Shown in pieces: positions 4,492-35,182 of a stretch of DNA of 64,000 nt; the first letter of the stretch is position 1; each line of letters opens with the position of its first letter. The translations under genes and the position numbers were made by a program. The DNA comes from Blastocystis sp. Blastoise (lineage: Eukaryota > Protista > Bigyra: Opalinata): positions 930,001 to 994,000 of the forward strand of contig JBBPEB010000005.1 in assembly GCA_039096225.1 (NCBI GenBank). Reading direction: 5' to 3'. Below the pieces are notes generated by a model that saw nothing but the letters and a program-made list of their open reading frames with translations, did no database searches and was not told the origin of the DNA.

Positions 4492-5387
4492 ATTCTTCCG
4501 TTCTTCGAACTGCAGAAGGGGGTATGCAAACCCCGCATAGAGTCTGCGCGACGCGCGCAGCCATAAGCGGGGAAGACATCCCCCCTTTTTGTTCTCGACG
4601 GAAGAATTATTAACATTTCTGAAGTAAAATAACCATGGGAGTGTAGGGTAGTGTGTGTGTGTATTTATTTTTTCCCATGTTTATTTATTTTTAATTTATT
4701 TGTGTTCCGATTCCAACGTGAAACGTAAAGTGATCAAGGAGAAACTCATAGTAATCATAAAAGAAATAAAATACACACTCACACCCTCCCCTTTACAGGG
4801 AATATTCATGGGAAATGGCTCCATCGTTGGTAAAGTGAGTAAAATAATCACGGGAATACAGAAAGAAATACGAAAAGAAGCACAGAATGTGCTAAATAAA
4901 CACACACCCCGACCCTCCCTTTATATAGAGAAAAGATGAAATGGATGGTTCTATCTAAAAAGAAATAATAGAAATAATCACGGGAATATATAAAAATAAA
5001 AATGTATGTATAGTGATCAATAAATAATATAAAAAGTCATGATAATCATAAAAAAAATTATATAAAAAGAGTAAAGTGATCAAGGTATGTATTTATAGTG
5101 GGTGAAAGAAAAGCTGGTGGTGGTGTGGTCTTGTAAAAAGATGTACCCACCACCACGATTATAACGAGAGACTTTTGGAAACAAGGGTGACCGTTATGGA
5201 AATAGGATGCGTCATCGTGAATTGTCCAATCAAATTGCTTAAAAATGTAAAAATGAGGGATTTTGGAACACAAAAACATAATTATATTGGGGAAACTGGG
5301 GAAACTAATTGTGTTCCAGTGGTTTTAGGTGGCGGGGTGTATATCAATTTTCTAGAATATTCTAGAACATTCTCGAAACTTCTAGAA
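4492..5387 (+). repeat. Left terminal inverted repeat of PLV copy 1 (896 bp)
   Basis: Near-perfect reverse complement of 35145-36041. Confidence 0.96.
5350..5387. promoter_or_regulatory. Heat-shock-element-like array at the inner end of the TIR
   Basis: TTCtaGAAtaTTCtaGAAcaTTCtcGAAacTTCtaGAA: 8 alternating nGAAn units. Confidence 0.75.
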
Positions 5388-5435
5388 TAATAAATTGTAT
5401 TATGCATTTTTTTTTCTATTTTTATACTATTTATT

Positions 5436-5603
5436 ATGGATTCTCCAAAGCAATTTGCTCCATATTATAAAGAAGGTACTTGGAAACCTTATGGAAATTT
5501 TGAAGTTGATGAATTAAGTGATAGTGATTCTGAAGTGGATACTATTCAAACTGAAAGTGAAGATGATTATGAAGATTATATAAAAAATTTTATTGATTTT
5601 TAA
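5436..5603 (+). CDS. Small acidic viral protein, 55 aa (below the ORF-track cutoff)
   Basis: MDSPKQFAPYYKEGTWKPYGNFEVDELSDSDSEVDTIQTESEDDYEDYIKNFIDF*. Lies after the HSE array and before a TTGTTTAGTT 3' motif; codon style matches the other viral genes. Confidence 0.7.
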   Translation: MDSPKQFAPYYKEGTWKPYGNFEVDELSDSDSEVDTIQTESEDDYEDYIKNFIDF

Positions 5604-5677
5604 ATTAATTTTTATAAATAACAAAACAAATTGTTTAGTTTTTAAAAATAATAATAAATAAAACAAAATAAAATTAA

Positions 5678-7168
5678 CTAATGTTTTCTACGTTTATTTC
5701 TTAATTTTTTATTTTTTGAAATACGTCTTTTTCTACGTAATCCATTACCTTCTTCGAGATCATAAAATACCTCACCATCATCTTCATCAAATGATTGAAA
5801 TTCATCATCTTCTTTTTTATTTCTTTTATTATTATTTTCAAGAGTGACATTTTCTACTGGATTAGGAATCGGGGCTACAGGTGTAATATTTGGAGTGAAT
5901 TTATTCGTTATTGCTTGAGACATTGGAACAATATCAGGTAAAGGAACAGTAGGATCATTCATAAGAGGAATTAAATTTGGAGGATTTGAATCTTCAATAG
6001 TAATATTATGAATATTTTCTTGTGTTAGATTATCAGGAGTAGATGAAGAAGTTGGTATAACATTATTATTTGTTTCTATTGAATTTTCTGTTTGTGGTAT
6101 TTCGTCCTCTGGGTTTTTACCATAGTAATATCCAGAAAAGGTATTAAATAAATTCTTTACACCACTAACAACAGAGTTTGCAACTTTTTTAACACCATTA
6201 ACAATTGGTGTTCCTACATTTGTTGCAGTATTAACAACTTTATTAACAAATGTAGGGTTTTCTGCATAGGGAATATAATTTTTATGAAATGTTTTTGCTT
6301 GATCTTCTAAAGATTTAGTTTTGTTAAGTCTTTGTTCTTTAGTATCATTACCTGACATATGAGCAAATCTAAAATAGTTATCAGCTAATAATTTATTCTT
6401 TTTCTTAGCTTCATTATCATCAGTTAATTTCCAATTATCATATAAATTATTTCTATCACTTACAAGTTTTCCTTTAATATCATTGAATCCTTCTTTTGGA
6501 TCAACATTAATATCTCTCCACCAATTCTTGAGATCTTTAAATTTATTTGCACCATAATCAACAGCATTACTTATTCCATGAGTGATATTATTAATACCTC
6601 CAGTTAATTTATCAGACACATTGTATACATCACTTACAGTGTGATAAATATTAGAAAATAAATTACCACCTCTAGAATATAAATAACCATCACGATCTCT
6701 TTTAGTAAAATCAATTGCACTATCAATTGTACGAGGATTTAATAATCTTGAATATTTAGCATAATCAGACATATGATTTTGTTTCATATAAGGTAAGACA
6801 TAATCATGAGCATAAATGAGTTTTCTTGTAAAGTTCTTAGGAATTCTACCATCAGGTAATAACCCAGATCCTTCATCTATTGGTTCACTTTCTTCTGATT
6901 CTTCTAAGGAACTTTGTATAATATCTTGTCTGGTTTCTGATAAATAGGAGAAAAATGGATTGGATGTTGCTCTATTGACCATATTACTTTCAATTTTCTT
7001 AACAGCATATAATGAATTTGGAGCAATAGAATAATTAATTGGATAACGTTCTTCTCCATCAGGAATAGATCCTGGAACAATATAATTTCGATATTCATGA
7101 CCAGTAGCACGATGATTTACGCCTACTAATCCTTTATTTGAAACATTTAAACGAGCACTTTGTATCAT
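5678..7168 (-). CDS. Viral protein, 496 aa, probable virion core precursor with basic C-terminal tail
   Basis: Long ORF with RGG/TGG and GxG-hydrophobic motifs and a terminal RRKRRISKNKKLRNKRRKH tail. Function is inferred. Confidence 0.6.
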   Translation of the reverse strand: MIQSARLNVSNKGLVGVNHRATGHEYRNYIVPGSIPDGEERYPINYSIAPNSLYAVKKIESNMVNRATSNPFFSYLSETRQDIIQSSLEESEESEPIDEGSGLLPDGRIPKNFTRKLIYAHDYVLPYMKQNHMSDYAKYSRLLNPRTIDSAIDFTKRDRDGYLYSRGGNLFSNIYHTVSDVYNVSDKLTGGINNITHGISNAVDYGANKFKDLKNWWRDINVDPKEGFNDIKGKLVSDRNNLYDNWKLTDDNEAKKKNKLLADNYFRFAHMSGNDTKEQRLNKTKSLEDQAKTFHKNYIPYAENPTFVNKVVNTATNVGTPIVNGVKKVANSVVSGVKNLFNTFSGYYYGKNPEDEIPQTENSIETNNNVIPTSSSTPDNLTQENIHNITIEDSNPPNLIPLMNDPTVPLPDIVPMSQAITNKFTPNITPVAPIPNPVENVTLENNNKRNKKEDDEFQSFDEDDGEVFYDLEEGNGLRRKRRISKNKKLRNKRRKH

Positions 7169-7258
7169 TTTAAATTAATAAAATAATTATGAATTTTAAA
7201 ACAAAACAAAAAAAAAAGAAATTATTTATATTATATAGTTAGTATATTAATAGTATCA

Positions 7259-8056
7259 TTAATTATTATGAGTATTTTTTAAATAATCGTCAATATTCAT
7301 TGATTTATCATTAGCTTCAACAAATAATGTTTTATTTTTGTAGAATATATTATTATTTCCAAAAACATCACTATTGGTGCATTCAATAGGTCCATCAGTA
7401 TACCATTTGAATTTATACTTTCCATAAGTGGCGTTATAATATGTTTTTTCGTCGGTATCTTGTTGTAAATTCATATCGAATTCAAATTTCTTTGGAGTAT
7501 TATCATCTTCTTTATCTGGTTTCTTTTCAGTTTCAGGTTTAGTTTCAGGTTCTTTAGCTGGTTTCTTTTCGTGTTCAGGTTTCTTTTCAGGTTCTGGTTT
7601 GGGTTGTTCTTCAGTGAAATTAGAATTCATGGATTCTGGTTGTGGTTTCACTGTATAGTCTTCATTAGGATTTCTTACAGTATGAATAAGTTTTTCATAT
7701 TGATAGTTATTAGGATTACTAGCATCATACCATATCTTACTTGTAGTAGGAATACCATAATTCGTTTGCCATTGAGATAACATTGATGTATATCTATTTG
7801 TATCACCATTAGCTTTAGCTGAATTCATAGTAGCTATAAACATATCTTCAGGTGATTGACCATGATTTCTTAATGCTTGAACTGCCATTGAACTATACAT
7901 AGATCCTTGTGCATTAGGATCATGTGCTAATGGTTGTACAGGTTGTTCATCTTGACAAATATATGAATTGGGTAACCATGGATCCCAAGATTGTTTTTTC
8001 TGATTTCTTGATAAAATATCATAGAGAGTTACACTATCTCCTAAATTACTTTGCAT
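7259..8056 (-). CDS. Hypothetical viral protein, 265 aa, with a P/E/K-rich linker
   Basis: ORF in the viral gene run with its own 3' motif; no recognisable domain. Confidence 0.75.
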   Translation of the reverse strand: MQSNLGDSVTLYDILSRNQKKQSWDPWLPNSYICQDEQPVQPLAHDPNAQGSMYSSMAVQALRNHGQSPEDMFIATMNSAKANGDTNRYTSMLSQWQTNYGIPTTSKIWYDASNPNNYQYEKLIHTVRNPNEDYTVKPQPESMNSNFTEEQPKPEPEKKPEHEKKPAKEPETKPETEKKPDKEDDNTPKKFEFDMNLQQDTDEKTYYNATYGKYKFKWYTDGPIECTNSDVFGNNNIFYKNKTLFVEANDKSMNIDDYLKNTHNN

Positions 8057-8132
8057 TATTTATTGTATTAATTTAAAAATAATTATATAACAAAACAAAT
8101 AATTAATTATGAAATAATAAAAGTTAAAATAA

Positions 8133-9170
8133 TTAATTTAAATGGAATTTTTTTAAGAAGAATTGAACAAGATTAATAATTAAATTAGTAGTAGTATCAA
8201 AGGATGTAGAGTTGACAAGAGCACCACCACAACGTTCAGCATTCTCTTTTGTAACACCACTTCCACTAGGATTTTTAAAATAGTTATCAGCAGTTTCTTT
8301 ACGTTTCTTATCATCATCAGTAGTAATCATATTATAAGCGAAATCAATAGGGATACCAAGAGAAGGATAATAGTATTTTAATGCATTCACTACAATAGGA
8401 ACAATAGTTTTAATAGTTTTAATAGCAGTATTCGCAATAATAGAATGCTTTTGTTTTGGATCCATAGGATATTCTTTATCGATAACGACATTAACAATAT
8501 CACGTACAGACACATGCTCATCATTTTTAGGTAATCGTTCTTTAATATCTTGTAATTTCTTTCTATTAGACTTTACATTACTAGAACGAATAGCCTTCTT
8601 AGCAATAATTCTTATTTGAGGAGTTACAAATTTACTTGTTTTCTTTTCTTTTTCTCGGTGACTCCCATGTTCTTTACGATGTTTCTGATGCCTTCTATGT
8701 ATACCTTGACCAAATATATCATCATAATTTTCATCTTCAAGATTTGCATTATTATAATCTTTATCATCATCAGCCATCATTTTTCTTGTTATTCTCTTTG
8801 GTTGATAAGTATCATCATCGTTATATAATTCATCATCTCTATTAGCATCTTCAATATGTTCTTCAAATTGTCTTTTCTTTTCTTCTTTTGCTTTTTCTTG
8901 ACGTTTTTGTTCTTTACGTTTCTGATAATAATTATATCCAGCAAATGCTCCTAATGTACCTAAAATAGGTAATGCAGTATAGACACCATTTTTAAAATCA
9001 GCCCAATCAGCATCTCTAGTTTGTTGTCTAACAATTTCTTCAAAGCCTGTTCCTCCATATCTTACATAACGTTTATGATAAAGATCACGTCTATTTGATT
9101 TTGGTGGTGATCCTCCAAATAATCGTGGATCACAATTTTGTTTTAAATATCTTTTTGTAATTGAACTCAT
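8133..9170 (-). CDS. Viral protein, 345 aa, probable virion precursor with a hydrophobic segment
   Basis: LFGG, RYGG, RCGG, GQGI and GSGV motifs; hydrophobic segment VYTALPILGTLGAFAGYNYY. Confidence 0.6.
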   Translation of the reverse strand: MSSITKRYLKQNCDPRLFGGSPPKSNRRDLYHKRYVRYGGTGFEEIVRQQTRDADWADFKNGVYTALPILGTLGAFAGYNYYQKRKEQKRQEKAKEEKKRQFEEHIEDANRDDELYNDDDTYQPKRITRKMMADDDKDYNNANLEDENYDDIFGQGIHRRHQKHRKEHGSHREKEKKTSKFVTPQIRIIAKKAIRSSNVKSNRKKLQDIKERLPKNDEHVSVRDIVNVVIDKEYPMDPKQKHSIIANTAIKTIKTIVPIVVNALKYYYPSLGIPIDFAYNMITTDDDKKRKETADNYFKNPSGSGVTKENAERCGGALVNSTSFDTTTNLIINLVQFFLKKFHLN

Positions 9171-9223
9171 AACAAAACAATAAAATAATTATGGTTTATA
9201 TGACAAATTAAAATATAAAAAAA

Positions 9224-10261
9224 TTAATGAAAAGATGGATAACCAGAATAATGTTTTTTATTTAAATAAGGATTGAAAATGCGTCGTTGACTATCTTGTA
9301 TGATTTGATCTTGTATGATTTGTAAGATGGATTCTTTAGGTTTATCTTTTTCATCTCGTTCAATACCTTTCAATGAGACTTCTTCTTCAACAGGTAAAAA
9401 CTTCTTCATTTTCTTTTCATATGTAGATACATGTTCATTAGGACGTTTAATACCACTACCTGATACTTCACCTTGTTCTTCTCGTTTCTCTTTTTCACTA
9501 TCTTCTTCTGTCCATTTCCTTTTCTTTACCATCTTATAGACATTCTGTTTACTACCACAATCAGGATTTGTCCATATCGTTAAATCATCACTACCTTGTT
9601 TTAACATAAAGAATTGATGTGGATCATTCATTAATTCTTCATCTGTAAGAATTTCATTTAGATTTGATGGCATAATCTTTAATTTATCTGGTAAGAATCC
9701 AGGATCACGTTTTAAGATTTGACTATTAATAAAGAAATGAGATACTTGACTTAATATAGATTGATTGGTAACATCTGTATGACTTTGAAGACATATAATA
9801 GCATTCTGTTTATAATGACGACCTTTAGATAATATAGATACAATCAATTGTTTGGTTTGTCTAGATAATGGATAGATATCATCCAATACAATAAAATTAT
9901 GTTCTGGTAATTTATATGTATTGACTAATTCATCAACAGTTTTAATCTTTTTAAATTTATCATCTACAGAATCATACCATTTATAATCAATTCCAGCATG
10001 CTCACAAATATCTTGAAAGGATGTATAACATTCATTCTTATTGGATGCATCAGGACAAATTACTGTGACTTGTTTATATTTATTTTTAAGATCCATAGAA
10101 CATAAGAGGTTCACAGTTAAGAAAGATTTACCTGAGAATGTTCTTGCAATAATCAATATGAATTTTGATTCATATGTTTTATGATGGGATTTTCCATATT
10201 TAAATTCTAAGACTCCACATCCTTTACGTGTTTCTTTTAATGGATTTATTTTATTCACCAT
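9224..10261 (-). CDS. A32-like (FtsK-HerA superfamily) genome packaging ATPase
   Basis: Walker A variant ARTFSGKS, Walker B FIVLDD, family signature KGRHYKQNAIICLQ. Confidence 0.92.
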   Translation of the reverse strand: MVNKINPLKETRKGCGVLEFKYGKSHHKTYESKFILIIARTFSGKSFLTVNLLCSMDLKNKYKQVTVICPDASNKNECYTSFQDICEHAGIDYKWYDSVDDKFKKIKTVDELVNTYKLPEHNFIVLDDIYPLSRQTKQLIVSILSKGRHYKQNAIICLQSHTDVTNQSILSQVSHFFINSQILKRDPGFLPDKLKIMPSNLNEILTDEELMNDPHQFFMLKQGSDDLTIWTNPDCGSKQNVYKMVKKRKWTEEDSEKEKREEQGEVSGSGIKRPNEHVSTYEKKMKKFLPVEEEVSLKGIERDEKDKPKESILQIIQDQIIQDSQRRIFNPYLNKKHYSGYPSFH

Positions 10262-10329
10262 TTTTATATGATTTTAATCAACAAAACAAAAATAATTAAT
10301 GATAAGTTAAAGATAAATAAATGATTTTA

Positions 10330-11001
10330 TTAAGATGCAGTAAAGTATATATAAAGATTTGTATTTGATAAATCAATTGGATTATTTAATTGATCATATA
10401 TTTCCCATTGGATATCTGTATATTTACCATCAATACATGGAATAGATAAATCACTTAAAGCAAATGTATTATCAAATCCTTGTTTAGCATATAAAGGAAT
10501 AGAAATTAAATCATTATCTTTATTAATAATATCACAATACACACGTAACATATAGATCTTATACCATGAAATATTATTGGATATATATTCATCAGTAAAT
10601 ACGATTGTATCACCCGGACTAAAGTATGGTGATTTAATGCCTAAGTATTTAAATAGTCCAGAACTAAGACCACATTCAAACCAATGATTTGATTTAAAAG
10701 TTTTAGTTTCTTTATTATAGCTGAAACCATAAGGTTCTCCTTCAACATAGGATTTCATTTTTTTTCCAATTTCATATAATTGATCTAAAAAATCTTCTAA
10801 AGTATAATTTCCAGCTGGAAATGTATATCTACCAGCATTATCATAAAACTGAATATTGAATTCAGGAATATTAATGATATCACTTGTATTCACTAATGTA
10901 TTGATATGAGTTATATTTTTACCTACTAAATCCAAAGTATAATTGAATTGTTCATGACAGATTTGACTTGTAATTTTACTTAGATGAGATATTGATGTCA
11001 T
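10330..11001 (-). CDS. Minor capsid protein (penton, single jelly-roll)
   Basis: Polinton-type penton motifs FPAGNYTLEDF, LRVYCDII and IQWEIYDQLNNPIDL; lies between the ATPase and MCP genes. Confidence 0.8.
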   Translation of the reverse strand: MTSISHLSKITSQICHEQFNYTLDLVGKNITHINTLVNTSDIINIPEFNIQFYDNAGRYTFPAGNYTLEDFLDQLYEIGKKMKSYVEGEPYGFSYNKETKTFKSNHWFECGLSSGLFKYLGIKSPYFSPGDTIVFTDEYISNNISWYKIYMLRVYCDIINKDNDLISIPLYAKQGFDNTFALSDLSIPCIDGKYTDIQWEIYDQLNNPIDLSNTNLYIYFTAS

Positions 11002-11098
11002 TTTTTATTAAATAAATTAATTATGTATTGATAAACAAAACAATATTTTTAAGATTAATATAAAGTTGATACAAATAAGAAAATATTATATAATTAAA

Positions 11099-12322
11099 TT
11101 AATTGGTTGCACCATCTCTAACAAATTTAACAAATATAAAATGAGCATATAAAGTATAAGTACCACTAGTAATATTTGCACCATTATATTCAGTTAATAA
11201 GGAGATATTAACTTCACAACCACTACGAGTATTGACATCAACAACACTTGAAATAGGGAATATATAAATAGGTTGTTCATACCACTTTTCACCATTCAAA
11301 GGAGATTGAGGATGACTATTACATCTCCAAGTATTATAAAGCATAGCATTAGGAATAATTTGTGATGGATTCGTTGTTTTATATGTAGTAGGGAAATCCG
11401 TCTTAGGTAAGATATTTTGACCACCAATTTGGAATTGACACATCTTCAATAATTCAGTCTTAATAGGAATCATACTCTTCTCTTGAGTTGTAAAATATAG
11501 CATACAGTAATCAGGTACGAAAACAACACTTCTATTGGATAAGAATTGTTGTGGAGTTGGTTTACCTGCTGTTGTGAATGTTTCTGAATAAACAGGTGTA
11601 GTAAATGCAGATATTTGACAATTATTAGGAATACATTTAATTAAAGCACGTGGATCATTACCAAAATTAATATCATAAATTTGTTGAAGATGAATATAAA
11701 CACGATCAAAAGTTAATGCAGTGATTTTAGTCGTACCTGTAAATAGATTCTTTAAATAATTTGTAACGAATTGCATCTTCAAAGATTTTACTTTAATAGC
11801 ACAATCAAATGTACCAAGACCAGTAATAAGAGATAAAGGAATAATAACTTGAGCTTTAGTAGAACTTTGCATTCCAGAAATACTACTTAATGTTGTATTA
11901 TATAAGCATTCTGTCATACTATACATAGATTTATCAATTTCATCTTTACTTAATTCTTTAATAGTAACAAATTTTCTTGCTTTACTGGATTCAATAGAAG
12001 ATTCAGAATAATTAATAAGAATATCTTGACCCGTAGGAGATACAAACGTAAGATCTGTAGTAATTTTATCAATAATACTATAGATATTAGAATGTTGTAC
12101 AACAGAACTAGTTGTAGCTGCATTTGTTGTAATATTGAAATTCAGTTCTAAGAATGAATTACTGAAATCAATAAAAGGACTATCCACTGAATTATATAAG
12201 AATTCAAATGGATAAGGTTGATTTAATAAATCTTGACTTGTAGAAACTAGAATAGGAATTTGTACAGGTTTAATAGTTTGATTTGCCTTTGAAGGTAAGA
12301 ATTGTCTTGGGAATCCTTCCAT
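11099..12322 (-). CDS. Major capsid protein 1 (double jelly-roll), 407 aa
   Basis: N-terminal pattern FIDFSNSFLELNFNI...NIYSIIDKI resembles Polinton/PLV MCPs; size, beta-rich composition and gene context agree. Confidence 0.75.
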   Translation of the reverse strand: MEGFPRQFLPSKANQTIKPVQIPILVSTSQDLLNQPYPFEFLYNSVDSPFIDFSNSFLELNFNITTNAATTSSVVQHSNIYSIIDKITTDLTFVSPTGQDILINYSESSIESSKARKFVTIKELSKDEIDKSMYSMTECLYNTTLSSISGMQSSTKAQVIIPLSLITGLGTFDCAIKVKSLKMQFVTNYLKNLFTGTTKITALTFDRVYIHLQQIYDINFGNDPRALIKCIPNNCQISAFTTPVYSETFTTAGKPTPQQFLSNRSVVFVPDYCMLYFTTQEKSMIPIKTELLKMCQFQIGGQNILPKTDFPTTYKTTNPSQIIPNAMLYNTWRCNSHPQSPLNGEKWYEQPIYIFPISSVVDVNTRSGCEVNISLLTEYNGANITSGTYTLYAHFIFVKFVRDGATN

Positions 12323-12492
12323 TTTAATAATTATTGTTTATGTATTTTTTAAATAAAAAATAAAATAATAATGATATTTTATAATTATAAAATTATTTGA
12401 AATTCATAACAAAACAAATGATTGGAATATAGAATAGAATAGAATTAATTAAACAAGTTAACGTTAAGAATAGTAAGTAAGAAATATTAAAT

Positions 12493-13965
12493 TTAAATAT
12501 CACGTACACTACGTACAGCAATCATATGTAATGTATAAGGATGCTTCTCATTTAGTTCAGTATTAATATGTTTATAAATACCAGCATGAGAAGCAACGGC
12601 ATAAGAAGCACCAGTGTCAGGTGTCCATATTTTAGTAGTTTCATTATATGTACATGTATATCCATCAGGAACAGTGGATGAATCAGCATGACCATATTCA
12701 ATATCATGGACATCTAGATTACAATCAAAATTCATTTCTATACCACTATCTGATTGGATATTCATTAATGCTTTAGTTGGAATAATATAAATAGGATGTT
12801 TAATCCATTCATCATATTTAAGAATAGTTTCAGGATTTGAATTATCAGCCCATAAACAATATAGATTTTTATTAGGACAAGATAAACTAGCAGTTTCTTC
12901 ATTATTGAAGACATGACCTTTAGTAGTAAGATTATGATAATACATTTGAGTAGGGAATTCAGTTTGAGGGAACATTTGAACATCACCAATCAAACAACTT
13001 TGATATTTAGGCCATACAGATGGACTAGCTACATTACTAATAGTTGTTGAACTATACCCATTTGTAAACCAGTATAATATATATTCAGGTATAAATGGTA
13101 AAGCTCTATTGATATTGAAATGATCACTAGTTATTCTTGTATTTTGATAATCGACTTGAATACATGTAGGTATAGTTTTATATAATTCATTCGTTTGGAA
13201 TTGAATATCTTTATAAGTCATTAAATTCATAGTAGCTGATTCCAATTCAAATGTCTTAAACCATTTTTCATCAGTTAGATGTAACCATTGTGTTGATAAT
13301 TTAGCACCACCATTCTTGAAATAAATACTCATATTATTATCAATTAAGGATTCAATTGTACTCGTTCTAAATAACATATTGAAATGTTTAGTTAATATTA
13401 ATGAATCTCCATCAACACCTAAACCACTAATGAGATATAAAGGAATAGCAATATGAATAGATTCATTTGGATGTGCACGTATATAACGAATAGAATTCAA
13501 TTCATAAGTATCTGCAGATAAATCTTCACCATACATAGATTTTTCTAAATCATTCTTACTGATATCTTTTAATAAAATCATTTTACGACCACGTGAAGCA
13601 TGTGTACAGTTTTCTTCATATTTCAAAGCACGATCAGATCCATCAGGTAAAGTATAAACCATTTCAACATCAGTGGAATCAATAATAGAATAAATATTAG
13701 CTTTTTGAACTAATTGATCCAAGAAATATTGACATAATTGATCATAGGTGAAACTAACAGAAGTACCTGTTTCATCTAAATAAACAGAAACTGGTCCAGC
13801 TTTATCTGTGACAGTTGCCTTGACAGTAAGATCCAAATAGGATTGATTGAAATTGATATAAGTGTTATCCACATTAGTCCAATGATATTGAAAGATATAA
13901 GGACTTGATAGAATATCAGTATCACTTTGAATAGGAATATTATCTTTAATTCTTAAGATTCTCAT
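12493..13965 (-). CDS. Major capsid protein 2 (paralogue of MCP1), 490 aa
   Basis: Collinear blocks shared with MCP1: NIYSIID, RK...K.ISK...EKSMY, IPL.LI.GLG, F.P.Y, P.T.FPT, W...PIYI.P. Confidence 0.72.
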   Translation of the reverse strand: MRILRIKDNIPIQSDTDILSSPYIFQYHWTNVDNTYINFNQSYLDLTVKATVTDKAGPVSVYLDETGTSVSFTYDQLCQYFLDQLVQKANIYSIIDSTDVEMVYTLPDGSDRALKYEENCTHASRGRKMILLKDISKNDLEKSMYGEDLSADTYELNSIRYIRAHPNESIHIAIPLYLISGLGVDGDSLILTKHFNMLFRTSTIESLIDNNMSIYFKNGGAKLSTQWLHLTDEKWFKTFELESATMNLMTYKDIQFQTNELYKTIPTCIQVDYQNTRITSDHFNINRALPFIPEYILYWFTNGYSSTTISNVASPSVWPKYQSCLIGDVQMFPQTEFPTQMYYHNLTTKGHVFNNEETASLSCPNKNLYCLWADNSNPETILKYDEWIKHPIYIIPTKALMNIQSDSGIEMNFDCNLDVHDIEYGHADSSTVPDGYTCTYNETTKIWTPDTGASYAVASHAGIYKHINTELNEKHPYTLHMIAVRSVRDI

Positions 13966-23355: not shown

Positions 23356-23422
23356 TTCTATGAAATGTTATAAAATATTAATAATAAATTTGTTTTGTTT
23401 ATAAATAATTTAATTTTTAATA

Positions 23423-25219: not shown

Positions 25220-25263
25220 TTTTAAAACAAAACAACTTTTTATAATAAAAAATAAATATATAT

Positions 25264-28200: not shown

Positions 28201-28266
28201 ATCTTTTGAATTATCATGATTAAAGGAACCAAAAGTATAAACAAAATGAATTTGTGAATTTTCCAT
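25264..28266 (-). CDS. AEP primase(-polymerase) fused to PriCT-2 and SF3 (D5-like) helicase
   Basis: AEP motifs WFDLDY, GIHIY and FID; PriCT-2-like TWYKLCCAAK..GLELF; Walker A GSTGSNGKT, Walker B YMNE, motif C FMTSN, Arg finger ERR. First ATG at 28266. Confidence 0.9.
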   Translation of the reverse strand: MENSQIHFVYTFGSFNHDNSKDNHSEIIIPNPFPFYKSLFTNYQNPKELLHYIDCTPCNTSTNYRRLWFDLDYHQISNDFSFLTDSFIHEFIEEMCNHCIHYYNQEFISLVYTKKEVNKKTVHNEIHYSWGIHIYTNWFVNGDYLFFLYNSMILNTKLVDLCKMNNLDIKEFIDYNVIGKPRKNNGCMFLGCSKDNSPSTYKLYEEYTNKTWKKIDDEIDEHYYFKTLLNYKNEDDIISDIINPIIFYKLKQYSRYKRYYTRLNNCSRTILCSIQDIKDIPMLIYTDTILDTTASKEALLERYLLLIGSIEDMNYFESHNTWYKLCCAAKQICNTTRGLELFKNYSLRYGHDRSDDVIESTWNHIQVDPTHLSNNYILKILMDNKLFNKDDDNDFIFMSILECIQSFNLVDSQTLVMLFQLLEFNEIVSIILDKDNFILYTFDEYNILRRCKNNYDINFFETKITTFMKSIVEKFKLSRLYSKENEQHQKIVDKIMSASVTNEYHYKEWLNRYLKTYGKSYKEYLDTYMVHKERVIYTQLGYLYPKESTEEDPRQYYIQPYHKEDMVFEDLLIDTEFNVSWNINNEQKDIIQLFEQHIARYCEFDKKYESIMLRILTTAFYVNTQKTVSYILYGSTGSNGKTITTDLISRIVGSNQCIIVNPDNLEETSIAPKIVDMSNKTMYYMNELIEEDVTGRKKTFNPFSSKVFKEIAEKKEGASARKLFSNIFTKVHFTGTLFMTSNIQPTAVNAGPIERRVCFLPSCCRYFPPGNANLYEDYVDHNLPKRKQTVEKRLKPNHYEMDYTLSDKFYQNRSIIFSYLVSNYFYSSMQLDMHELDNEYHISECKKRFFDRSTEGYDLKSFVDNHITIDPYYLNVVTIEDIFNSYKKVNNNNQFTIKKDLDKFTNALFGCLSSKDTFNSIDIVNIHRKHTSNFYKGGNAIGICGLMIDNTYNECVDTDLFCLSNCLSKKEEIVYSEDQYHNTSSTKRILIDNTLYAIPN

Positions 28267-28334
28267 GATTATTTGACTTATAAATAATGAAAATAAATAT
28301 GGTATAAAATTCAAAACAAATAATATATTAAAGA

Positions 28335-28472
28335 TTCTAGAAGTCAGTTTTGGAAGCTTCTAGAACATTCAAGAACATTCTAGAACATTCTAGAACATTC
28401 TATAATAGTAAATATTACTTTATATTTTTAAATGTTCTAGAACCTTCTAGAACCTTCTAGAACCTTCTAGAA
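28335..28472. promoter_or_regulatory. Two HSE-like arrays upstream of the primase-helicase gene
   Basis: TTCnnGAAnn repeats with 10-bp period at 28358-28400 and 28435-28472, plus a single unit at 28335. Confidence 0.75.
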
Positions 28473-28582
28473 CATCCTTTTTATACTTTAGTGTTTTAAA
28501 TGTATATACAATAAACAAAACAATTTTCAATGATTTTTTACAAGTTTATAAGTAAAAATAGAAAAATAAACAAGAAAAATAA

Positions 28583-29206
28583 TTAAATTTCAATTGGTTC
28601 TTGACTATTAATATATGTACATGAATGAGGCCATCCATTTTTATCATATAAAATACCATCCCAGAAATACATTTGTTTTGAAGGATCTCTTTTAATCTTG
28701 TTAATACTCTTAGCATGAACAACTTCATAAGTATAAACTTTACCTTTTTCATCATAAAGAAATCCATCTTCCATATGGAATTTCATAATATCAAAATCAT
28801 CATCTTTAGAATTCGAATGTTCTTTAGAATCTTCAGAACATAAAATAGTAGTTCTATCACTTTCTAAAAGATCTTCAGTATTGATAATATCTTGAATATC
28901 TTGTTCTTCATTAAGTTGTTGAGTATAAATATCAGCAGCGAATTCTTCATAATCTTCAAGACCTTTAATAACCGCGTTTATACGTTTTAAAGCTGATCTA
29001 TAGTTTTCGACTTCGAAAGAAGCAAGACGTTCTTTAGATTTTGCAATACCCAATAGATTCTTTTCTCTATTCAATTGAGACTGATGTAAATCAATATCAC
29101 GAAGAACATTCTTATGAACTTCAACAGCCTTCTTAGAATTCTTAAGAAGTTCCATACGAACAGTTTGAAGACATTTACGGGAATCAGCAGAAAGATTAAA
29201 TTGCAT
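28583..29206 (-). CDS. Hypothetical viral protein with N-terminal coiled coil (207 aa from the first ATG)
   Basis: Conserved in copy 2; short HSE at 29318-29335 upstream. Confidence 0.75.
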   Translation of the reverse strand: MQFNLSADSRKCLQTVRMELLKNSKKAVEVHKNVLRDIDLHQSQLNREKNLLGIAKSKERLASFEVENYRSALKRINAVIKGLEDYEEFAADIYTQQLNEEQDIQDIINTEDLLESDRTTILCSEDSKEHSNSKDDDFDIMKFHMEDGFLYDEKGKVYTYEVVHAKSINKIKRDPSKQMYFWDGILYDKNGWPHSCTYINSQEPIEI

Positions 29207-29604
29207 TATAATCGCGAATATCGTTACAGAGAGAAAATTTATATTTATCAAAATGAAATAAATAATACATTTAAATGGAATATTAAATATTCTAGGAGAC
29301 AGTGTAGAATCTCTATGGAATGTTCTAGAAGGTTCATTTGATTGGCTAATTTTGTCGACTTAGCATTTTTTATTTGTGTTTCAATGACGAGTATAGTTGG
29401 CATCTGTAATCTGATTGGATAAAAAAATTAGTAAAACACAATTAGACGATGACGACGATGTGTCATACGAAATAAGTTATTTTATTGGCTTATTTTCCAG
29501 CTGGAAGCAATAGGCTTTTGTTAGCAACTGAAATGAAGAACTGTACACTAAAAATAGTATATTTAATATATTGTATAAAAATACTTTTGAAGGTTTAAAT
29601 AATC

Positions 29605-30132
29605 ATGGAAATTCCTGATAGTCTTTCTGCCAGTTTATCCCCTTTCGGTCAAGCCATGATATCCCCCTTGTTGAATCCATTTGAAAATAGTGTTTCTGCA
29701 AATCCTATGGCTTTACCCAATGATAATGATTTCTGTTTTAATTCGCGTGACGAAATCATGTTTGAAGATCCACCTCAAGAAATTCATCCAATCAATGATG
29801 TTTACGTATCTAAAAATCCAGATAGATATCATTCGGTTAACAATCAACCAATACAATTTCAAGATCAAGTAAATACAAATCCTGATAAGCAAGCATTATT
29901 ATTTACAAATGAGGAGTTAACAAATATATCCAGTCAATTCGAATCTTTATTTCAAACTATTGAAACAGCTGATAATATATTAAATGGTATTTATTGTACT
30001 GTTGATCATTTAAAAACAAAGATTGAAAGTCAGAAACAAGATTTGAAACAGATTCATGATGATTCTAAAGAAATTGTTTCATTATTATCCGAATATTCTA
30101 TTCCTTCTATGTCTGAAATATTTGATCATTAA
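29605..30132 (+). CDS. Hypothetical viral protein, 175 aa, acidic N-terminus and C-terminal coiled coil
   Basis: Conserved in copy 2; upstream divergent promoter region 29340-29520 contains three ATTGG (CCAAT) boxes. Confidence 0.75.
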   Translation: MEIPDSLSASLSPFGQAMISPLLNPFENSVSANPMALPNDNDFCFNSRDEIMFEDPPQEIHPINDVYVSKNPDRYHSVNNQPIQFQDQVNTNPDKQALLFTNEELTNISSQFESLFQTIETADNILNGIYCTVDHLKTKIESQKQDLKQIHDDSKEIVSLLSEYSIPSMSEIFDH

Positions 30133-30223
30133 TTATTTTTATTTAATTAATTATTTTGTTTTGTTTATTTTTTTTTTAAATTAATTACACAAAGTTTAAA
30201 TGGAGAATAGAATAGTTTCAAAT

Positions 30224-30331
30224 AGAATTCTTGAATGGTCTAATGGATCTATTAAAGAAATATGTAACCACAGTATCATGGTTCGATTCCGTTAAAATGT
30301 TTCCATTAGATTATTCAAGTGTTCTTTTTTT
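30224..30331 (+). ncRNA. Viral RNA polymerase III small RNA, VA-RNA-like architecture (~105 nt)
   Basis: A-box TGGTCTAATGG (30236-30246), B-box GGTTCGATTCC (30280-30290), T7 terminator (30325-30331), 18-bp terminal stem 30230-30247/30302-30319. Confidence 0.78.
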
Positions 30332-30377
30332 CTAGAACCTTCTCGAACCTTCTAGAACCTTCTAGAACCTTCTCGAA
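30330..30377. promoter_or_regulatory. HSE-like array upstream of the SSB-like gene
   Basis: Five TTCnnGAA units at 10-bp period. Confidence 0.75.
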
Positions 30378-30454
30378 AATTGATTCATTTGAAAAGAATA
30401 TCGTAAAATATTAGTATTAAAATACTTATATTTTTACTAAATACTTAACTAAAA

Positions 30455-31048
30455 ATGTCTACAACTGAATTTAAAAAACCTACTATTCTTGATACTTCTA
30501 ACTTTAATTTACAATGGGATGACACCAAAGAAAATGCTGTTCTTTTAAATAATAATCATCGTGTATGTATTTCTACTGATGCTACACCATGTTTATTTGG
30601 TTATATTGTTACACGTGATAAATGGACTTTATTAACAATTGAAGATGATAATCAAGTATTCTTAACTGCTTATAAAGAACTTTATCGTAAATTATGTGAA
30701 TTATGTCCTGATGGTGATATTGTTAATTTTGTACGTATGGATAATGGTAAATATAAGATTACAATTAAAGTACCTATTAATGCATCGAAGAATATTACTA
30801 TTGATATCACTGATAAAAGAGATAAGAAGATTAATATCGGTAAAGATCCTAAGTTAACTTACGAAGAAATACGTGAAAAGTATATTCCACCAAATACGTT
30901 ATGTAAAGTATTATTTACAATACATGGTATTCATCGTTATAATAACAAGTATTATATTGGTTTATATGCTCGTTCTATTAAAGTCATCGATAAATCTACG
31001 AAGAATACTAATAGTAATGATACTATTATTGATTTAACCAATTTATAA
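30455..31048 (+). CDS. Probable single-stranded DNA-binding protein (OB-fold, T7 gp2.5/NCLDV-like)
   Basis: Pattern ST..TPCLFG...helix...KITIKVP...IPPNTLCKVLFTIHGIHRYNNKYYIGLYARSIKV resembles NCLDV SSBs. Recognised by eye only. Confidence 0.55.
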   Translation: MSTTEFKKPTILDTSNFNLQWDDTKENAVLLNNNHRVCISTDATPCLFGYIVTRDKWTLLTIEDDNQVFLTAYKELYRKLCELCPDGDIVNFVRMDNGKYKITIKVPINASKNITIDITDKRDKKINIGKDPKLTYEEIREKYIPPNTLCKVLFTIHGIHRYNNKYYIGLYARSIKVIDKSTKNTNSNDTIIDLTNL

Positions 31049-31123
31049 ATTTTTAATGTTAAATTTATTTTTTATTAATATATTTGTTTTGTTTATAAAT
31101 AATTTTATAATTGAAATAAAAAA

Positions 31124-32752
31124 ATGCAAAGTTGTATATTAGGAATGCCAAGTCCTGGTACTTTTGGTATGAATTTAATTTCAACTGGAAAAGAATATAG
31201 GCGATATAATACACAACCATTACATAAAATGGATCAATATAATCCAATATTTCATGAAATAGGTCCAAATTCATCTATGCCTGTGTCTACTTTAGAAAGT
31301 AAAGAAATACATGATGGTAAAGAAGATGATTATGTAGATCGTTCTAAAACATTTGGTAAAGATGCTGTTCCACAAGGAAATGGTGCTTTAATTCGTGCTA
31401 GAGCAGCAGGTAAAGGTGTAATGAAAGCAGCTGGTCCAGAAGAAGATAAAATAGATGGTGAAGATCGTCAATATAAAGTATTAAATCCATGTAAACCAAG
31501 ACGTAAATCTGGTAGAGGTATTATTCCAAATAAATCAGAAATCAATAAATTAGAGAATAATCAAGGTTCTGGTATTGGTGATGCAATTAAAAATAAAGTA
31601 AAAGATATGTATCAACGAAATGTATTAGATATAAGAGATGCTATTGTAGATAAAAAAGCTAATAGAAAAGCTCGTGATGCATTAGCTATTTTAGCTCAAT
31701 ATGTTGGTGACGGTCATCATGATCTTGATGATGAATTCAAAAGATTCTATGAACATAAAATTAAACGTGGTGGAAAGATTCCTATATCTGTTGCTTCAGC
31801 AATTATGAATGCAATTAAAAATAAGAAAATGATTAATAATCCAAAATTAAGAAGAATGTTAAGACCCTCTATTATACCAAAATATATAGATTTAGATTCA
31901 GCTCAAAGTGGTGATGGTATATTAAGAGTTAAAAGAGGTGGTGGATTCTGGAGTGGAGTTATGAACTATGCACCAGCTCTTTTAGGTGTAGTTGATAAGG
32001 GTATGGATTCTTTTGCTAAAGGTAGAAAAGCTTATTATGATACACATTTGGCACAACAATCAAGTGAATTAAATGATATGGAATTTGAAATGGAAAAATT
32101 AAAACGTCAACAAGCATTAAATGAAATGAAAAAACAAATAGGTTCAGGAAATACAATAAATAAAATGTTTGAAGGATATTATGATGTAGCTGATGAAATG
32201 CAAGATGCTCTTGATGAAGATGATAGACTACATCCACAACCCGTTGTTCAACCTCCACCACCTCCACAACAACAAGTTGATCGACCTCCTCAATCTCAAC
32301 CTCCTCAACCTTATAAACCCATGTCTCGTGATGAACAAAGTTATTATTATAAGATTTATGGTTTCCCTCAAAATGATAAAGAGAAAGTCGATAGAAAATG
32401 GAAAGAAGATGAAAGGGATAAACGAATAGCTGCAAGAAGAGCTAAACGTAGAGGTTATGGTGGTCGAGTTAAATTAAGTAAAGCAGAATTCTTAGAACGA
32501 ATGAGAAGAGGAAAAGAAGCTAAAAAGAAAAGAGGTGGTGATTTGAATCCATTAGTATCATTTTATACAGATTTTATAATACCTGCAGGAGTGGCACGAA
32601 AAAAACGTAAAATACAAGAGGCTGATTTAAAACAATTACAAATTATAAAACAGAAAATAGATAATAATGAAACATTAAATACAGGTGACGAATTGTTCTG
32701 GAAAAAAAAGAAGTATATGTTATCAAAAAACTCAGGGGAGGGGATCTGGTAA
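31124..32752 (+). CDS. Basic virion core polyprotein precursor, 542 aa
   Basis: K/R-rich, with four GG motifs (KRGG x3, GYGG) and about seven GxG motifs; amphipathic segment after KRGG; directly upstream of the protease. Confidence 0.65.
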   Translation: MQSCILGMPSPGTFGMNLISTGKEYRRYNTQPLHKMDQYNPIFHEIGPNSSMPVSTLESKEIHDGKEDDYVDRSKTFGKDAVPQGNGALIRARAAGKGVMKAAGPEEDKIDGEDRQYKVLNPCKPRRKSGRGIIPNKSEINKLENNQGSGIGDAIKNKVKDMYQRNVLDIRDAIVDKKANRKARDALAILAQYVGDGHHDLDDEFKRFYEHKIKRGGKIPISVASAIMNAIKNKKMINNPKLRRMLRPSIIPKYIDLDSAQSGDGILRVKRGGGFWSGVMNYAPALLGVVDKGMDSFAKGRKAYYDTHLAQQSSELNDMEFEMEKLKRQQALNEMKKQIGSGNTINKMFEGYYDVADEMQDALDEDDRLHPQPVVQPPPPPQQQVDRPPQSQPPQPYKPMSRDEQSYYYKIYGFPQNDKEKVDRKWKEDERDKRIAARRAKRRGYGGRVKLSKAEFLERMRRGKEAKKKRGGDLNPLVSFYTDFIIPAGVARKKRKIQEADLKQLQIIKQKIDNNETLNTGDELFWKKKKYMLSKNSGEGIW

Positions 32753-32844
32753 AGAGTAAAGATGAAAAACTTATTCAAAATTCAATGAATTGCGATAATC
32801 CTATTATATCTGATAAAACTCGTCATGTTACTCCTAGATCCCCT
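32725..32844 (+). other. Putative -1 programmed ribosomal frameshift signal (A_AAA_AAC plus downstream stem-loop)
   Basis: Heptamer 32725-32731 is in the correct phase; stem AGGGGATCTGG (32739-32749)/CTAGATCCCCT (32834-32844); the -1 frame is open into the protease. Confidence 0.75.
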
Positions 32845-33318
32845 GATAATTTCAAACAAACTCTATCTCAATATTGTAATATACCAAATTCTTTAATATC
32901 TCAATTATATAATTATGCTTATTTAAATAAACCTACCTCTTCTGTTGCTTGTGATCGTGCTGAAAATGTTATGAAACAATTAAATAAAACGAATTCTCAA
33001 TCTTATAATTATTATAATAGTTATGATGATTTTGAACAAAATATAGATCAAGATCAAACTAAATTTAATATGATCTTTCATGAAAGTCCTAGTGATCCTT
33101 ATAATGGTCATTTTGAAGCTGTTATTTATAATGGTAATAAAAACATAGAACACTATTCATCATTAGGAAATGAACCTACTTTTTCAAAATCATTTATTCA
33201 AAATCATAATATTCAATATAATCCTATTCAACACCAAAAAACTACAAGTAATGCAAATGGTTGCTTTTATTATTCTTTACTTTATTTACTTTCTAATGGA
33301 AATCTTATGCCTTGTTAA
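32785..33318 (+). CDS. Adenain-like (clan CE) maturation cysteine protease; probably translated from 32731 via frameshift
   Basis: GHFEAV (His), YSSLG (aligns with FEPFG/FDSFG), YNPIQHQ (oxyanion Gln), GCFYYSLLYL (Cys). Confidence 0.8.
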   Translation: MNCDNPIISDKTRHVTPRSPDNFKQTLSQYCNIPNSLISQLYNYAYLNKPTSSVACDRAENVMKQLNKTNSQSYNYYNSYDDFEQNIDQDQTKFNMIFHESPSDPYNGHFEAVIYNGNKNIEHYSSLGNEPTFSKSFIQNHNIQYNPIQHQKTTSNANGCFYYSLLYLLSNGNLMPC

Positions 33319-33322
33319 AACC

Positions 33323-33567
33323 TTCTAGAATATTCTAGAATCTTTAATTTATTATATTAATATTTTGTATAATTAATTTGTTTTGTTTAATATTTAATAC
33401 TATTATGACAAAGAAACGATTTGGCAATTACTACTTAGATCGTAGTGCAGAAACTTTAGAGAATGTAAATGAAATACTGTCAGTTATTGAAATTGTTCTT
33501 ATTATTATATATATTTTACTTTACTTTTATATGTCCAAGAAACGTTCTAGAACATTCTAGAACATTC
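33323..33567. promoter_or_regulatory. Two short HSE-like arrays (33323-33340 and 33545-33567), each upstream of a small gene
   Basis: TTCtaGAAtaTTCtaGAA and TTCtaGAAcaTTCtaGAAcaTTC. Confidence 0.6.
33405..33560 (+). CDS. Small putative membrane protein, 51 aa
   Basis: ATG at 33405; hydrophobic stretch ILSVIEIVLIIIYILLYFYM followed by KKR; retained in copy 2; has its own 3' motif. Confidence 0.55.
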   Translation: MTKKRFGNYYLDRSAETLENVNEILSVIEIVLIIIYILLYFYMSKKRSRTF

Positions 33568-33662
33568 ATTTTGAACTGGCTCTATTTGTAGAATCTTTAA
33601 TTTATTATATTAGTGTTTTATATAATTAATTTGTTTTGTTTAATCATTGGTTAATTTTAATA

Positions 33663-34037
33663 ATGAACAAGAAATATCTTAGTTATTCTTATTTTTGTCG
33701 TGTGATGAAGAATCTAAAAGAAGAAGGAATTAAATCCAAAAAGAATGAAATAGCGAATCTATTAGAACAATTTTTAAATAATAATAACAACAAAAATCTT
33801 AGTGATTTGCAATTGAGTTATTGTAGAAATATGTTACTTTATATAGATGATCCTGTGATTCATCAACGTCTTGAAATGTTATTGGATAAACAATATATGA
33901 AGAATGAGAATCAATATCAAGATGATAAGAATCTTATTCAACCCAATAATATGTTTATGCCAACTATGAAAAGTAATCAACAACAAAATCAATATCAAAA
34001 TAATAATAATAATCTATCTTTCTTACCTTTTAATTAA
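33663..34037 (+). CDS. Hypothetical viral protein, 124 aa from the first ATG, Q/N-rich C-terminus
   Basis: Protein is identical in copy 2 despite several silent changes. Confidence 0.75.
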   Translation: MNKKYLSYSYFCRVMKNLKEEGIKSKKNEIANLLEQFLNNNNNKNLSDLQLSYCRNMLLYIDDPVIHQRLEMLLDKQYMKNENQYQDDKNLIQPNNMFMPTMKSNQQQNQYQNNNNNLSFLPFN

Positions 34038-34110
34038 TTTTTATATCCTTTTATTACTAGTTGTTTAGTTATATTCAAAATTAAAGCAAAACAAACATGA
34101 AAACATAAAA

Positions 34111-35046
34111 TTATTCAATTAATTTTTTAAATAAATTATTATTTTCTAAAGATACATAAGAATTAATATGTGTATAATCATTATGACATAAAGCAGAAGC
34201 AGAATTTTCTATATCTTGGAATGTATTGGTTGTAGTTGTAGCATATAATTTTCTTAATGCATTAATGGTTAATTTTGGATGGATTTGTTTTAAATGCTTA
34301 TTCACAAACCAATCAAATGCTTTAGTAGTAAATCCAGTTCTTACAGAAGATTCAAATATAAATTTACGATTTGGATTTCTTTTTAAGAGTAATTCTAGAT
34401 CTTCAATCAATTCTTTTGGTGCATCTAATTGAATTGTAGAGTATTTACCAGCAGTTTTATAATCATTTAATAGAATAGAACCAGTATGTTTCTCTTTATC
34501 ATAAACAATATAATTCTTATGAATAGCTGGATCAATAGTATCTTCTGGTGATAGAATGAATAATTGAGCATAATCAGCACGAGCAGGAGGAAGATAGGAG
34601 TAAAAATCTAATATTAATCGTAATGGATTATAATTTTCTAATTTATCGTGATATTCATGTAAATATGGAGTCGTAATACCATCTTTAATAAGATCTTGAA
34701 TTAAAGTACGTTTCTTATTATCCAGATATTTTTCATACATTGAATTGATAATCACATAAAATTCACACCATTTATTTAAAATACCTTCTTTATTTAATGA
34801 AGAAACATTACGTATAATAAATAAAATCAATTCACATAACGATTTCATTGGACTAATTTTGATTTTACGTTCATTTACCATATAATCCATGAATGAATAA
34901 GGATTCTTTAAGAATTCTGAGAACTTTTTAAATGGTAATGGGAAAATATATAAATTGAAATAATTGGTTAAACGTTTTTTCCAAATATCAGAATAATTTG
35001 AATTCTGTATAACCAAAAGATACTTGTCATAATTTGTATTTTTCAT
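34111..35046 (-). CDS. Tyrosine recombinase/integrase, short form (311 aa from the first ATG)
   Basis: PPARADY (R), LNDYKTAGKY (K), NALR (R), HNDYTHINSY (H, Y); virophage/PLV-type integrase pattern; adjacent to the TIR. Confidence 0.88.
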   Translation of the reverse strand: MKNTNYDKYLLVIQNSNYSDIWKKRLTNYFNLYIFPLPFKKFSEFLKNPYSFMDYMVNERKIKISPMKSLCELILFIIRNVSSLNKEGILNKWCEFYVIINSMYEKYLDNKKRTLIQDLIKDGITTPYLHEYHDKLENYNPLRLILDFYSYLPPARADYAQLFILSPEDTIDPAIHKNYIVYDKEKHTGSILLNDYKTAGKYSTIQLDAPKELIEDLELLLKRNPNRKFIFESSVRTGFTTKAFDWFVNKHLKQIHPKLTINALRKLYATTTTNTFQDIENSASALCHNDYTHINSYVSLENNNLFKKLIE

Positions 35047-35134
35047 TGATTTTCTCAAGTAGAATCTCTAAAACTTCTATTTTCAAAAGAATAATACATA
35101 AGAAAATCAAAATAAAATATCTAAGATTCTCATG

Positions 35135-35182
35135 TTCTCGAATGTTCTAGAAGTTTCGAGAATGTTCTAGAATATTCTAGAA
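35135..35182. promoter_or_regulatory. HSE-like array upstream of the short recombinase gene
   Basis: Five TTCnnGAA units at 10-bp period. Confidence 0.75.

Follow-up and report, generated by a model that had tools for sequence, protein, structure and literature searches.

Heat-shock-element-like arrays precede a subset of genes in an endogenous Polinton-like virus of Blastocystis

An integrated virus and its copies

The 64,000 nucleotides analysed here (contig JBBPEB010000005.1 of Blastocystis sp. Blastoise, assembly GCA_039096225.1, positions 930,001 to 994,000; hereafter the window) carry an endogenous Polinton-like/MELD virus, which is integrated and multi-copy in Blastocystis. Phased arrays of the pentamer nGAAn, the pattern of eukaryotic heat shock elements (HSEs), lie upstream of eight genes of this element. 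We suggest, with a probability of roughly 55%, that heat shock factor (HSF) of the host drives the early genes of the element through these arrays, likely under stress. The genes and ends of the element are as follows (window positions; strand where assigned):

4492..36041, copy 1 of the endogenous Polinton-like/MELD virus, with ~25.1 kb of virus sequence and a 6.4-kb insertion
4492..5387, plus, left terminal inverted repeat (TIR), 99.4% identical to the right TIR
5436..5603, plus, 55-aa acidic open reading frame (ORF), array-marked, no family
5678..9170, minus, three genes without array (496, 265 and 345 aa), labelled core-like from composition only
9224..10261, minus, packaging-type ATPase, 345 aa, no array (phrog_2666, E 1.1e-10)
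10330..11001, minus, 223-aa gene, penton candidate from position and size only, no array, no significant match
11099..12322, minus, major capsid protein, 407 aa, double jelly roll, no array
12493..13965, minus, 490-aa capsid paralogue, no array (28% identity, E 3e-39 to the capsid protein)
14039..22863, plus, 811-aa gene, no array, split by the insertion in copy 1, intact in copy 2 (58687-61122)
22933..25219, plus, 140-aa gene and 598-aa probable tyrosine recombinase (long), no array
25264..28266, minus, primase-helicase, 1000 aa, array-marked (phrog_1156 DNA primase, E 2.5e-9)
28583..30132, divergent 207-aa (minus) and 175-aa (plus) genes, array-marked, no family
30455..31048, plus, 197-aa gene, array-marked, weak resemblance to viral DUF5871/DUF2738 clusters
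31124..33318, plus, 542-aa basic gene and 177-aa gene, no array; the latter a maturation protease candidate from a His/Glu/Cys pattern seen by eye, no hit
33405..34037, plus, array-marked ORFs of 51 and 124 aa, for which neither family nor homologue was found
34111..35046, minus, 311-aa probable tyrosine recombinase (short), array-marked
35145..36041, minus, right TIR, 897 bp, with CCAAT/ATTGG and TGACG words beside the array in its inner part
45624..64000, minus, copy 2 of the element, inverted, running past the window end

Members of the Polinton-like virus (PLV)/MELD class measure 15-30 kb and carry TIRs, and the element, with ~25.1 kb and 897-bp TIRs, falls within these bounds. Modelled from 48 sequences (47 chosen out of 87 homologues plus the window paralogue), the 407-aa protein adopts a double jelly roll (pLDDT 84, compared with only 32 from the single sequence) with Sputnik, PBCV-1 and MELD capsids among its top folds; it is matched best by the Sputnik capsid in the PDB and, among viral models, by protein A0A8S5L5M3 of MELD virus sp. 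(TM 0.68). Endogenous PLVs combine the same size range, TIRs, capsid, primase-helicase and tyrosine recombinase (PMC10120064). The Blastocystis MELD virus (PMC8502044) likewise has linear dsDNA of middle size, and its virion proteins cannot be recognised from their sequences, but it has PolB and an rve integrase, whereas the element instead has a primase-helicase and probable tyrosine recombinases. As neither protein-primed PolB nor rve integrase was matched in Pfam (19 proteins) or PHROG (20 proteins), the element does not qualify as a Maverick/Polinton in the strict sense, nor as the published Blastocystis MELD virus.

Relatives of the primase-helicase show weak PriCT-2 and DUF5906 matches. 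The short recombinase shares 99% identity with a Blastocystis sp. Blastoise protein; its PF00589 match (E 0.084) lies below the cut-off, it has no PDB hit and its motifs were read by eye. A profile alignment with the long recombinase gave a non-significant score with the motifs in register, and we regard both proteins as probable tyrosine recombinases. The DUF2738 cluster that the 197-aa gene resembles is presumably one of single-stranded-DNA-binding (SSB) proteins. Elsewhere, the domain is called unknown (10.1101/2022.07.28.501842). Possible maturation-protease sites, though weak ones, are G-x-G-hydrophobic motifs present in the ATPase as well as in the proteins of 496, 345 and 542 aa (5678-9170, 31124-32752). 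The first 109 nt of the terminus (4492-4600 and 35933-36041) fold into a GC-rich nested hairpin (z -3.97, 0/200 shuffles), a candidate origin or recombination site; by eye, no target-site duplication is evident at the element ends.

A cluster of primase-helicases comprises 19 members, 17 of them named from Blastocystis sp. Blastoise, and the full-length ones listed are 99% identical to copy 1; the element is thus present in ~17-19 copies. Nine equal-length genes differ between copy 1 and copy 2 by 42 synonymous versus 11 non-synonymous codons. Given this ratio and the ~99% identity of the copies, the viral family is, judged from its sequences, young, multi-copy and under purifying selection. 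More distant families (40-50% protein identity) are present in Blastocystis sp. Blastoise and in ENA/Logan contigs of up to 24 kb. The tandem capsid paralogues (11099-13965) are only ~92-94% identical between the two copies, compared with 99% in the early block, and this stronger divergence suggests that element copies may recombine.

Phased arrays and the genes they precede

The first-pass annotation had listed TTC/GAA arrays in the element, and every one of them was found at its place. We counted perfect units only, the unit being nGAAn, alternately inverted and phased; by this count, what had been described as one array at 28335-28472 does contain such units, arranged in three pieces. The arrays are:

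5350..5387, 8 units, inner end of left TIR, 49 bp before the 55-aa ORF
28335..28472, three pieces of 2 (28335), 10 (28353-28400) and 8 units (28435-28472), the nearest two 69-87 bp before the primase-helicase start
29318..29335, 4 units, between divergent genes, 112 bp to the 207-aa and 270 bp to the 175-aa gene
30330..30377, 10 units, 78 bp before the 197-aa gene
33323..33340, 4 units, between stop and 3' motif of the 177-aa gene, 65 bp before the 51-aa ORF
33545..33567, 5 units, overlapping the last 16 bp of the 51-aa ORF, 96 bp before the 124-aa gene
35135..35182, 10 units, inner end of right TIR, 89 bp before the short recombinase
46349-46396, 47964-47986, 48191-48208, 51172-51219, 52214-52231, 53077-53114 and 53149-53196, nGAAn arrays of copy 2

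Copy 1 holds eight arrays of at least four units (4-10 each) with 59 units altogether. In 300 dinucleotide shuffles of the 25-kb element (1-kb blocks), 4-unit arrays appeared at a mean of 0.007 and longer ones never. When all trinucleotide/reverse-complement pairs were scanned across the window, such arrays were built from GAA/TTC (65 overlapping matches), an ATA/TAT microsatellite (103) and AAT/ATT (1) only. A perfect 4-unit match (12/12 bases) was present within 300 bp upstream of 8/20 genes, at distances of 49, 65, 69, 78, 89, 96, 112 and 270 bp from the start codon, while the remaining 12 genes reached 7-9/12 at best. The arrays form six separate clusters, each close to a start codon, in an element whose DNA is 83% coding. 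Besides the array at 33545-33567, three others overlap ORFs of 40-75 aa, which we treated as spurious.

Which genes are marked? The primase-helicase carries an array and both capsid genes lack one. Penton, core and protease were labelled by eye, and the wider division into virion-type and other genes uses sequence-based labels; with these, an array precedes 0/10 virion-type and 8/10 other genes (Fisher P=0.0007), compared with 0/3 and 3/4 for tool-supported labels alone (P=0.14). Tools supported a function for three of the eight marked genes, namely the primase-helicase and, both weakly, the SSB-like gene and the recombinase, leaving five without assigned function after family searches. The earlier statement that capsid, ATPase, core and long-recombinase genes lack arrays was borne out by this upstream scan. 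The broader claim that the arrays mark the non-structural genes held in so far as no virion-type gene is marked; it did not extend to the long recombinase and the 140-aa gene, which are non-virion genes without arrays. As the promoters of the array-less genes carry no array and their upstream gaps measure 32-170 bp, these genes must use other, compact control. GenBank annotation was discarded as a proxy for expression, virion and early genes being annotated alike. Contigs from one run of presumed type reach into the 140-aa, long-recombinase and primase-helicase genes, and two other runs gave none; such contigs cannot rank genes, and the part they span extends only between the 140-aa gene and the promoter of the primase-helicase.

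The composition of the arrays can be described more closely. Position 1 of nGAAn, at which HSF prefers A, is A in 49/59 units (83%), while position 5 is mixed (C 22, T 18, G 13, A 6). The preference at position 1 arises because the TTCnnGAA spacer is TA in 21/27 cases, so that the proposed pattern of variable spacers between fixed TTC and GAA is true of the GAAnnTTC spacer, which takes 8 different dinucleotides, and much less of the other. Spacers differ from array to array (CC, CA, TA, TG), which suggests that one motif may have been built up separately at each of them. The left-end array is a shortened copy (8/10 units) of the right-end array; the two are not independent, because the inner border of the TIR falls inside the array. 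Inward transcription from both ends, as had been proposed, is possible, and the left array looks like a by-product of the TIR that faces the 55-aa ORF only.

Further words accompany some arrays. The array at 29318-29335 is flanked by three ATTGG and two TGACG words. The stretch 33333-33392, which follows the 4-unit array, is duplicated at 33590-33645 before the 124-aa gene, and TTCTAGAATCTTTAAT is found again before the primase-helicase; on account of both repeats, promoter modules look as if they had been copied within the element. Copy 2 retains all seven arrays that fall inside the window, with unit numbers equal to those of copy 1; only two differences lie inside arrays, both at spacer positions and too few for a test. 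The TIR of copy 2 is without 138 bp matching 35192-35329 (gap at 46338-46340), including the CCAAT/ATTGG and TGACG words, and has kept the array. It is therefore a natural promoter variant.

Heat shock factor and arrays in other genomes

HSEs are defined as inverted nGAAn repeats with three or more pentamers in phase (PMC12366260, PMC6927752). The arrays, with 4-10 perfect units, equal this definition, which bears out the proposal that they represent the binding consensus of HSF, and like HSEs they stand shortly upstream of genes (49-270 bp before eight start codons). Of the host check that had been asked of the idea, the part on HSF itself came out positive: a table of domain counts (PMC10690189, supplement file 7, row 523) gives the HSF domain IPR000232 for 2 genes of the matching Blastocystis strain, and each of its eight Blastocystis columns has 2-3. 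We consider it likely, from the match in sequence, that HSF binds the arrays.

The 3' ends of the viral genes also point to the host. TGTTT(T/A)GT or TGTTTGTT occurs 14-77 nt after the stop in 18/20 viral genes, compared with 1.5-4.5% of control windows, the degenerate pattern having been fixed after viewing the sequences; this word tracks gene ends even at convergent pairs. A TGTTTTGT-type word 3' of viral genes (e.g. 30157, 31085, 25227) resembles the Blastocystis downstream gene element. Because viral genes carry this Blastocystis-like 3'-end motif, host polymerase II is indicated, consistent with viral mRNAs being processed as nuclear host-type transcripts. The downstream gene element is not enriched in host genes of the tortoise isolate (PMC10690189); the 3' word in the virus may reflect a host switch or an older host signal that was retained. 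TATAAA and TATAAT occur at background level in the element, so TATA boxes are not usable as promoter evidence there.

Beyond the window, metagenome stretches were searched for 8-unit arrays and IMG/VR for 8-unit and 5-unit patterns. About 370 metagenome stretches carry 8-unit arrays. Such arrays stand before an HSP20 gene (L044:178-215), a Ty3 gag (L070:4321-4358) and a DDE transposase (L036:284-321) in metagenome contigs, and long TTCnnGAA tandem arrays lie beside bacterial-type genes in L011, L008, L027, L039 and L060. In 120 loci with 8-unit arrays, position 1 is A in 503/1390 units (36%), compared with the 83% of the element, and three array clusters were found in none of the loci fetched up to L130, most of which are short. 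IMG/VR yielded four stretches with 8-unit arrays, one lying within a phage ORF and three being the same plain tandem repeat. With the 5-unit pattern, 8/24 stretches were Rep-encoding contigs of CRESS-DNA viruses (circular, single-stranded, with a Rep gene) from 6 lineages; in 6/8 longer contigs checked, the match lies within an ORF. The CRESS arrays are:

L128:1484-1511, L128:4545-4567, L134:4978-5000, L135:254-276, L140:3767-3789, L150:1929-1951, L156:998-1025 and L137:315-342, arrays of 5-6 units, intergenic, mostly just before Rep

From the array end to the start of Rep, the distance is 62-145 nt in four of these lineages, namely L128 (two genomes), L134/L135/L140, L150 and L156. The two genomes of L128 keep TTC/GAA while their spacers differ, and a TATA box stands between array and start codon there as well as in L137. 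The array-preceded Reps belong to different Pfam families, and arrays in such unrelated viruses speak for the HSF reading; with the counterexamples given below, the comparison beyond the window is mixed overall.

A possible stress switch and its alternatives

Why should an integrated virus place the same host-type motif before eight of its genes? We propose that, upon proteotoxic stress in the protist, HSF trimers would load cooperatively on the arrays and switch on transcription of the early genes, i.e. primase-helicase, short recombinase and six small genes. Their products would then replicate or mobilise the element, and the virion block would follow by a second step; excision and virion release would be further consequences. 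If HSF is bound, its binding is probably regulated by stress rather than constitutive; the downstream part, in which early products replicate or mobilise the element and turn on the array-less virion block, is less likely than not. The capture of HSEs as such is known from transposons, and their proposed use at many promoters of a capsid-encoding DNA provirus would be a variant of this known strategy. ONSEN, Helitron1_CE (PMC6927752) and Macrostomum Ty3 long terminal repeat (LTR) elements (PMC12801592) bear canonical HSEs in their own promoters and are heat-inducible; a Drosophila Polinton family is weakly heat-induced, its HSE not being mapped in the accessible text (PMC10627563). These transposons have one promoter region and no DNA-virus capsid, whereas the element, known here from sequence alone, has six clusters, a marked subset of genes and a capsid. 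Host HSFs also bind herpesvirus promoters (EBV latency, RTA/ORF50, CMV immediate-early) and affect latent or lytic transcription (PMC12366260). There, one HSE acts at one promoter of an episomal animal virus, in contrast to long perfect arrays at eight genes of an integrated protist virus. In SOS-induced prophages, a host stress regulon likewise gates a latent virus; they lose their repressor after DNA damage, while the element would use a host activator at many promoters.

Several observations weigh against the proposal. The long recombinase lacks an array. Among the metagenome loci, long phased arrays also lie beside bacterial-type genes (MraZ, pseudouridine synthase, S8 peptidase), a heat-shock protein (HSP20) accounts for only 1/87 ORFs adjoining arrays in the fetched loci, and 16/120 loci are A-rich at position 1 as well (>=75%). 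The weight of the 8/24 CRESS stretches depends on the share of CRESS DNA in IMG/VR, which is presumably small; moreover, the array of L137 faces another gene, that of the CRESS contig L132 coincides with the stop of Rep, and L134/L140 hold another Rep copy (76% identical) without any array. Searches for DNA of related viruses, with short recombinase, primase-helicase and capsid against viral contigs, confirmed none (one weak match, E 2e-4), as did the primase-helicase query against metagenome contigs. In published systems, 2/6 HSE-bearing Macrostomum families were not induced (PMC12801592), and with HSF2 on the RTA promoter in latency, lytic expression was only subtle (PMC12366260).

The latter case illustrates an alternative that we judge rather unlikely, in which HSF binding is constitutive or tied to a stage of the life cycle, encystment for example, and HSF serves as a strong, ready-made early-gene activator after infection or in latency, with no stress switch. 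HSF2 occupies the RTA promoter in latency (PMC12366260), and the host has two HSF-domain genes (PMC10690189). Arrays of 8-10 units are far above the 3-unit minimum and may bind at basal HSF level. The same layout occurs in CRESS viruses, which to our knowledge need no induction switch. Yet HSE capture has led to heat induction in three transposon systems, in one of them abolished by HSE mutation (PMC6927752, PMC12801592), and constitutive primase-helicase from ~17-19 copies would be costly. Another alternative, which we hold to be improbable, sees in the TTCTAGAA palindromes operators or origin iterons bound by a viral protein, e.g. a recombinase or the product of the 124-, 207- or 140-aa gene, and ascribes the likeness to HSEs to convergence. 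Pfam/PHROG scans and homologue searches of the element proteins detected no viral DNA-binding or HSF-like family, and the 124-aa protein had no homologue at E 1 among 6 candidates. The same motif before Reps of different Pfam families is more simply explained by a shared host factor, and the arrays are mostly internal and tied to start codons rather than ends, although one array borders the TIR near the folded terminus, five marked genes are without assigned function and Rep-binding iterons of CRESS viruses occupy the same intergenic region. The 175-aa coiled coil, which we take to resemble HSBP1, was also considered as a mimic of that protein and rejected, since Pfam gave nothing of the kind at E 0.1 and the hits in the PDB were all spurious.

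HSF activation could also signal infection by a large helper virus, to which, and not to heat or oxygen, the element would wake as a virophage-like responder. Giant viruses reactivate several endogenous PLVs and virophages (10.64898/2026.06.19.733378; PMC10945749; 10.1101/2025.10.09.676808), and orthopoxvirus infection activates HSF1 (PMC12366260). We nevertheless hold this to be very improbable, as the mimivirus-type early word AAAATTGA occurs 4 times in the element versus 5.9 expected, with only one occurrence facing a gene, no gene flux was found between gut egoviruses and Blastocystis (10.1101/2024.03.23.586382), and no helper virus for the element was found in the literature. In PgVV/Gezel-14T, one promoter motif marks recombinase and polymerase genes as it does here, but that motif is the helper's AAAATTGA, whereas the motif of the element matches a nuclear stress factor of the host (10.1101/2022.07.28.501842). 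In this respect the element does not match a helper-dependent PLV of the PgVV type, the giant-virus early promoter not being enriched before early genes. Least credible is that the arrays are neutral, minisatellites of 10 bp that slippage amplified out of a TTCTAGAA palindrome. Some of the ~370 metagenome stretches with 8-unit arrays are bacterial-looking DNA, and one spacer (CC) is repeated consecutively in several arrays; against this stand six clusters near start codons in one 25-kb element of 83% coding DNA, equal unit numbers in both copies, and the finding of three clusters in none of the loci fetched up to L130, though most were short.

Protist genomes commonly harbour endogenous PLVs, for which a giant virus is the trigger described in the literature consulted. 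Regulation by host HSF, if true, would let a capsid-encoding DNA provirus be switched on by host stress without a helper, and would provide a simple motif by which inducible elements and early genes could be recognised in other genomes. The element offers a named host factor, a sharp predicted early-gene set, a built-in control (array-less virion block and long recombinase), many near-identical copies and a culturable host. A more far-reaching version, which we consider doubtful, is that in a recently spreading virus family the early programme as a whole operates as a heat-shock regulon of the host and that CRESS Reps share the trick, making HSF a general induction signal for eukaryotic DNA proviruses; warming of the gut of an ectotherm, or oxygen on shedding, would then activate HSF and bring about replication and recombination in all copies simultaneously, and virus release. 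In mostly non-subscription literature (best 20 of 314, 20 of 7,353, 15 of 19 and 15 of 202), HSE arrays were not found reported for any PLV, virophage, Maverick or CRESS virus, nor was a report found of this Blastocystis family, which is apparently undescribed so far.

The surroundings of the element hold two further features. Its insertion reads as follows:

16203..22591, minus, Helitron-like insertion, 6.4 kb, non-coding, no array, interrupting the 811-aa gene of copy 1

The label follows the end rules of Helitrons: on the minus strand, the first bases of the insertion are TC, its other end is formed by a GC-rich hairpin and CTAG, and the bases flanking it are A and T. A second copy of this element, ~85% alike, lies at 38494-44900. 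A host tRNA-Pro(AGG), the sole match of an Rfam scan, is located at 2132-2203, 2.3 kb from the left end of the viral element.

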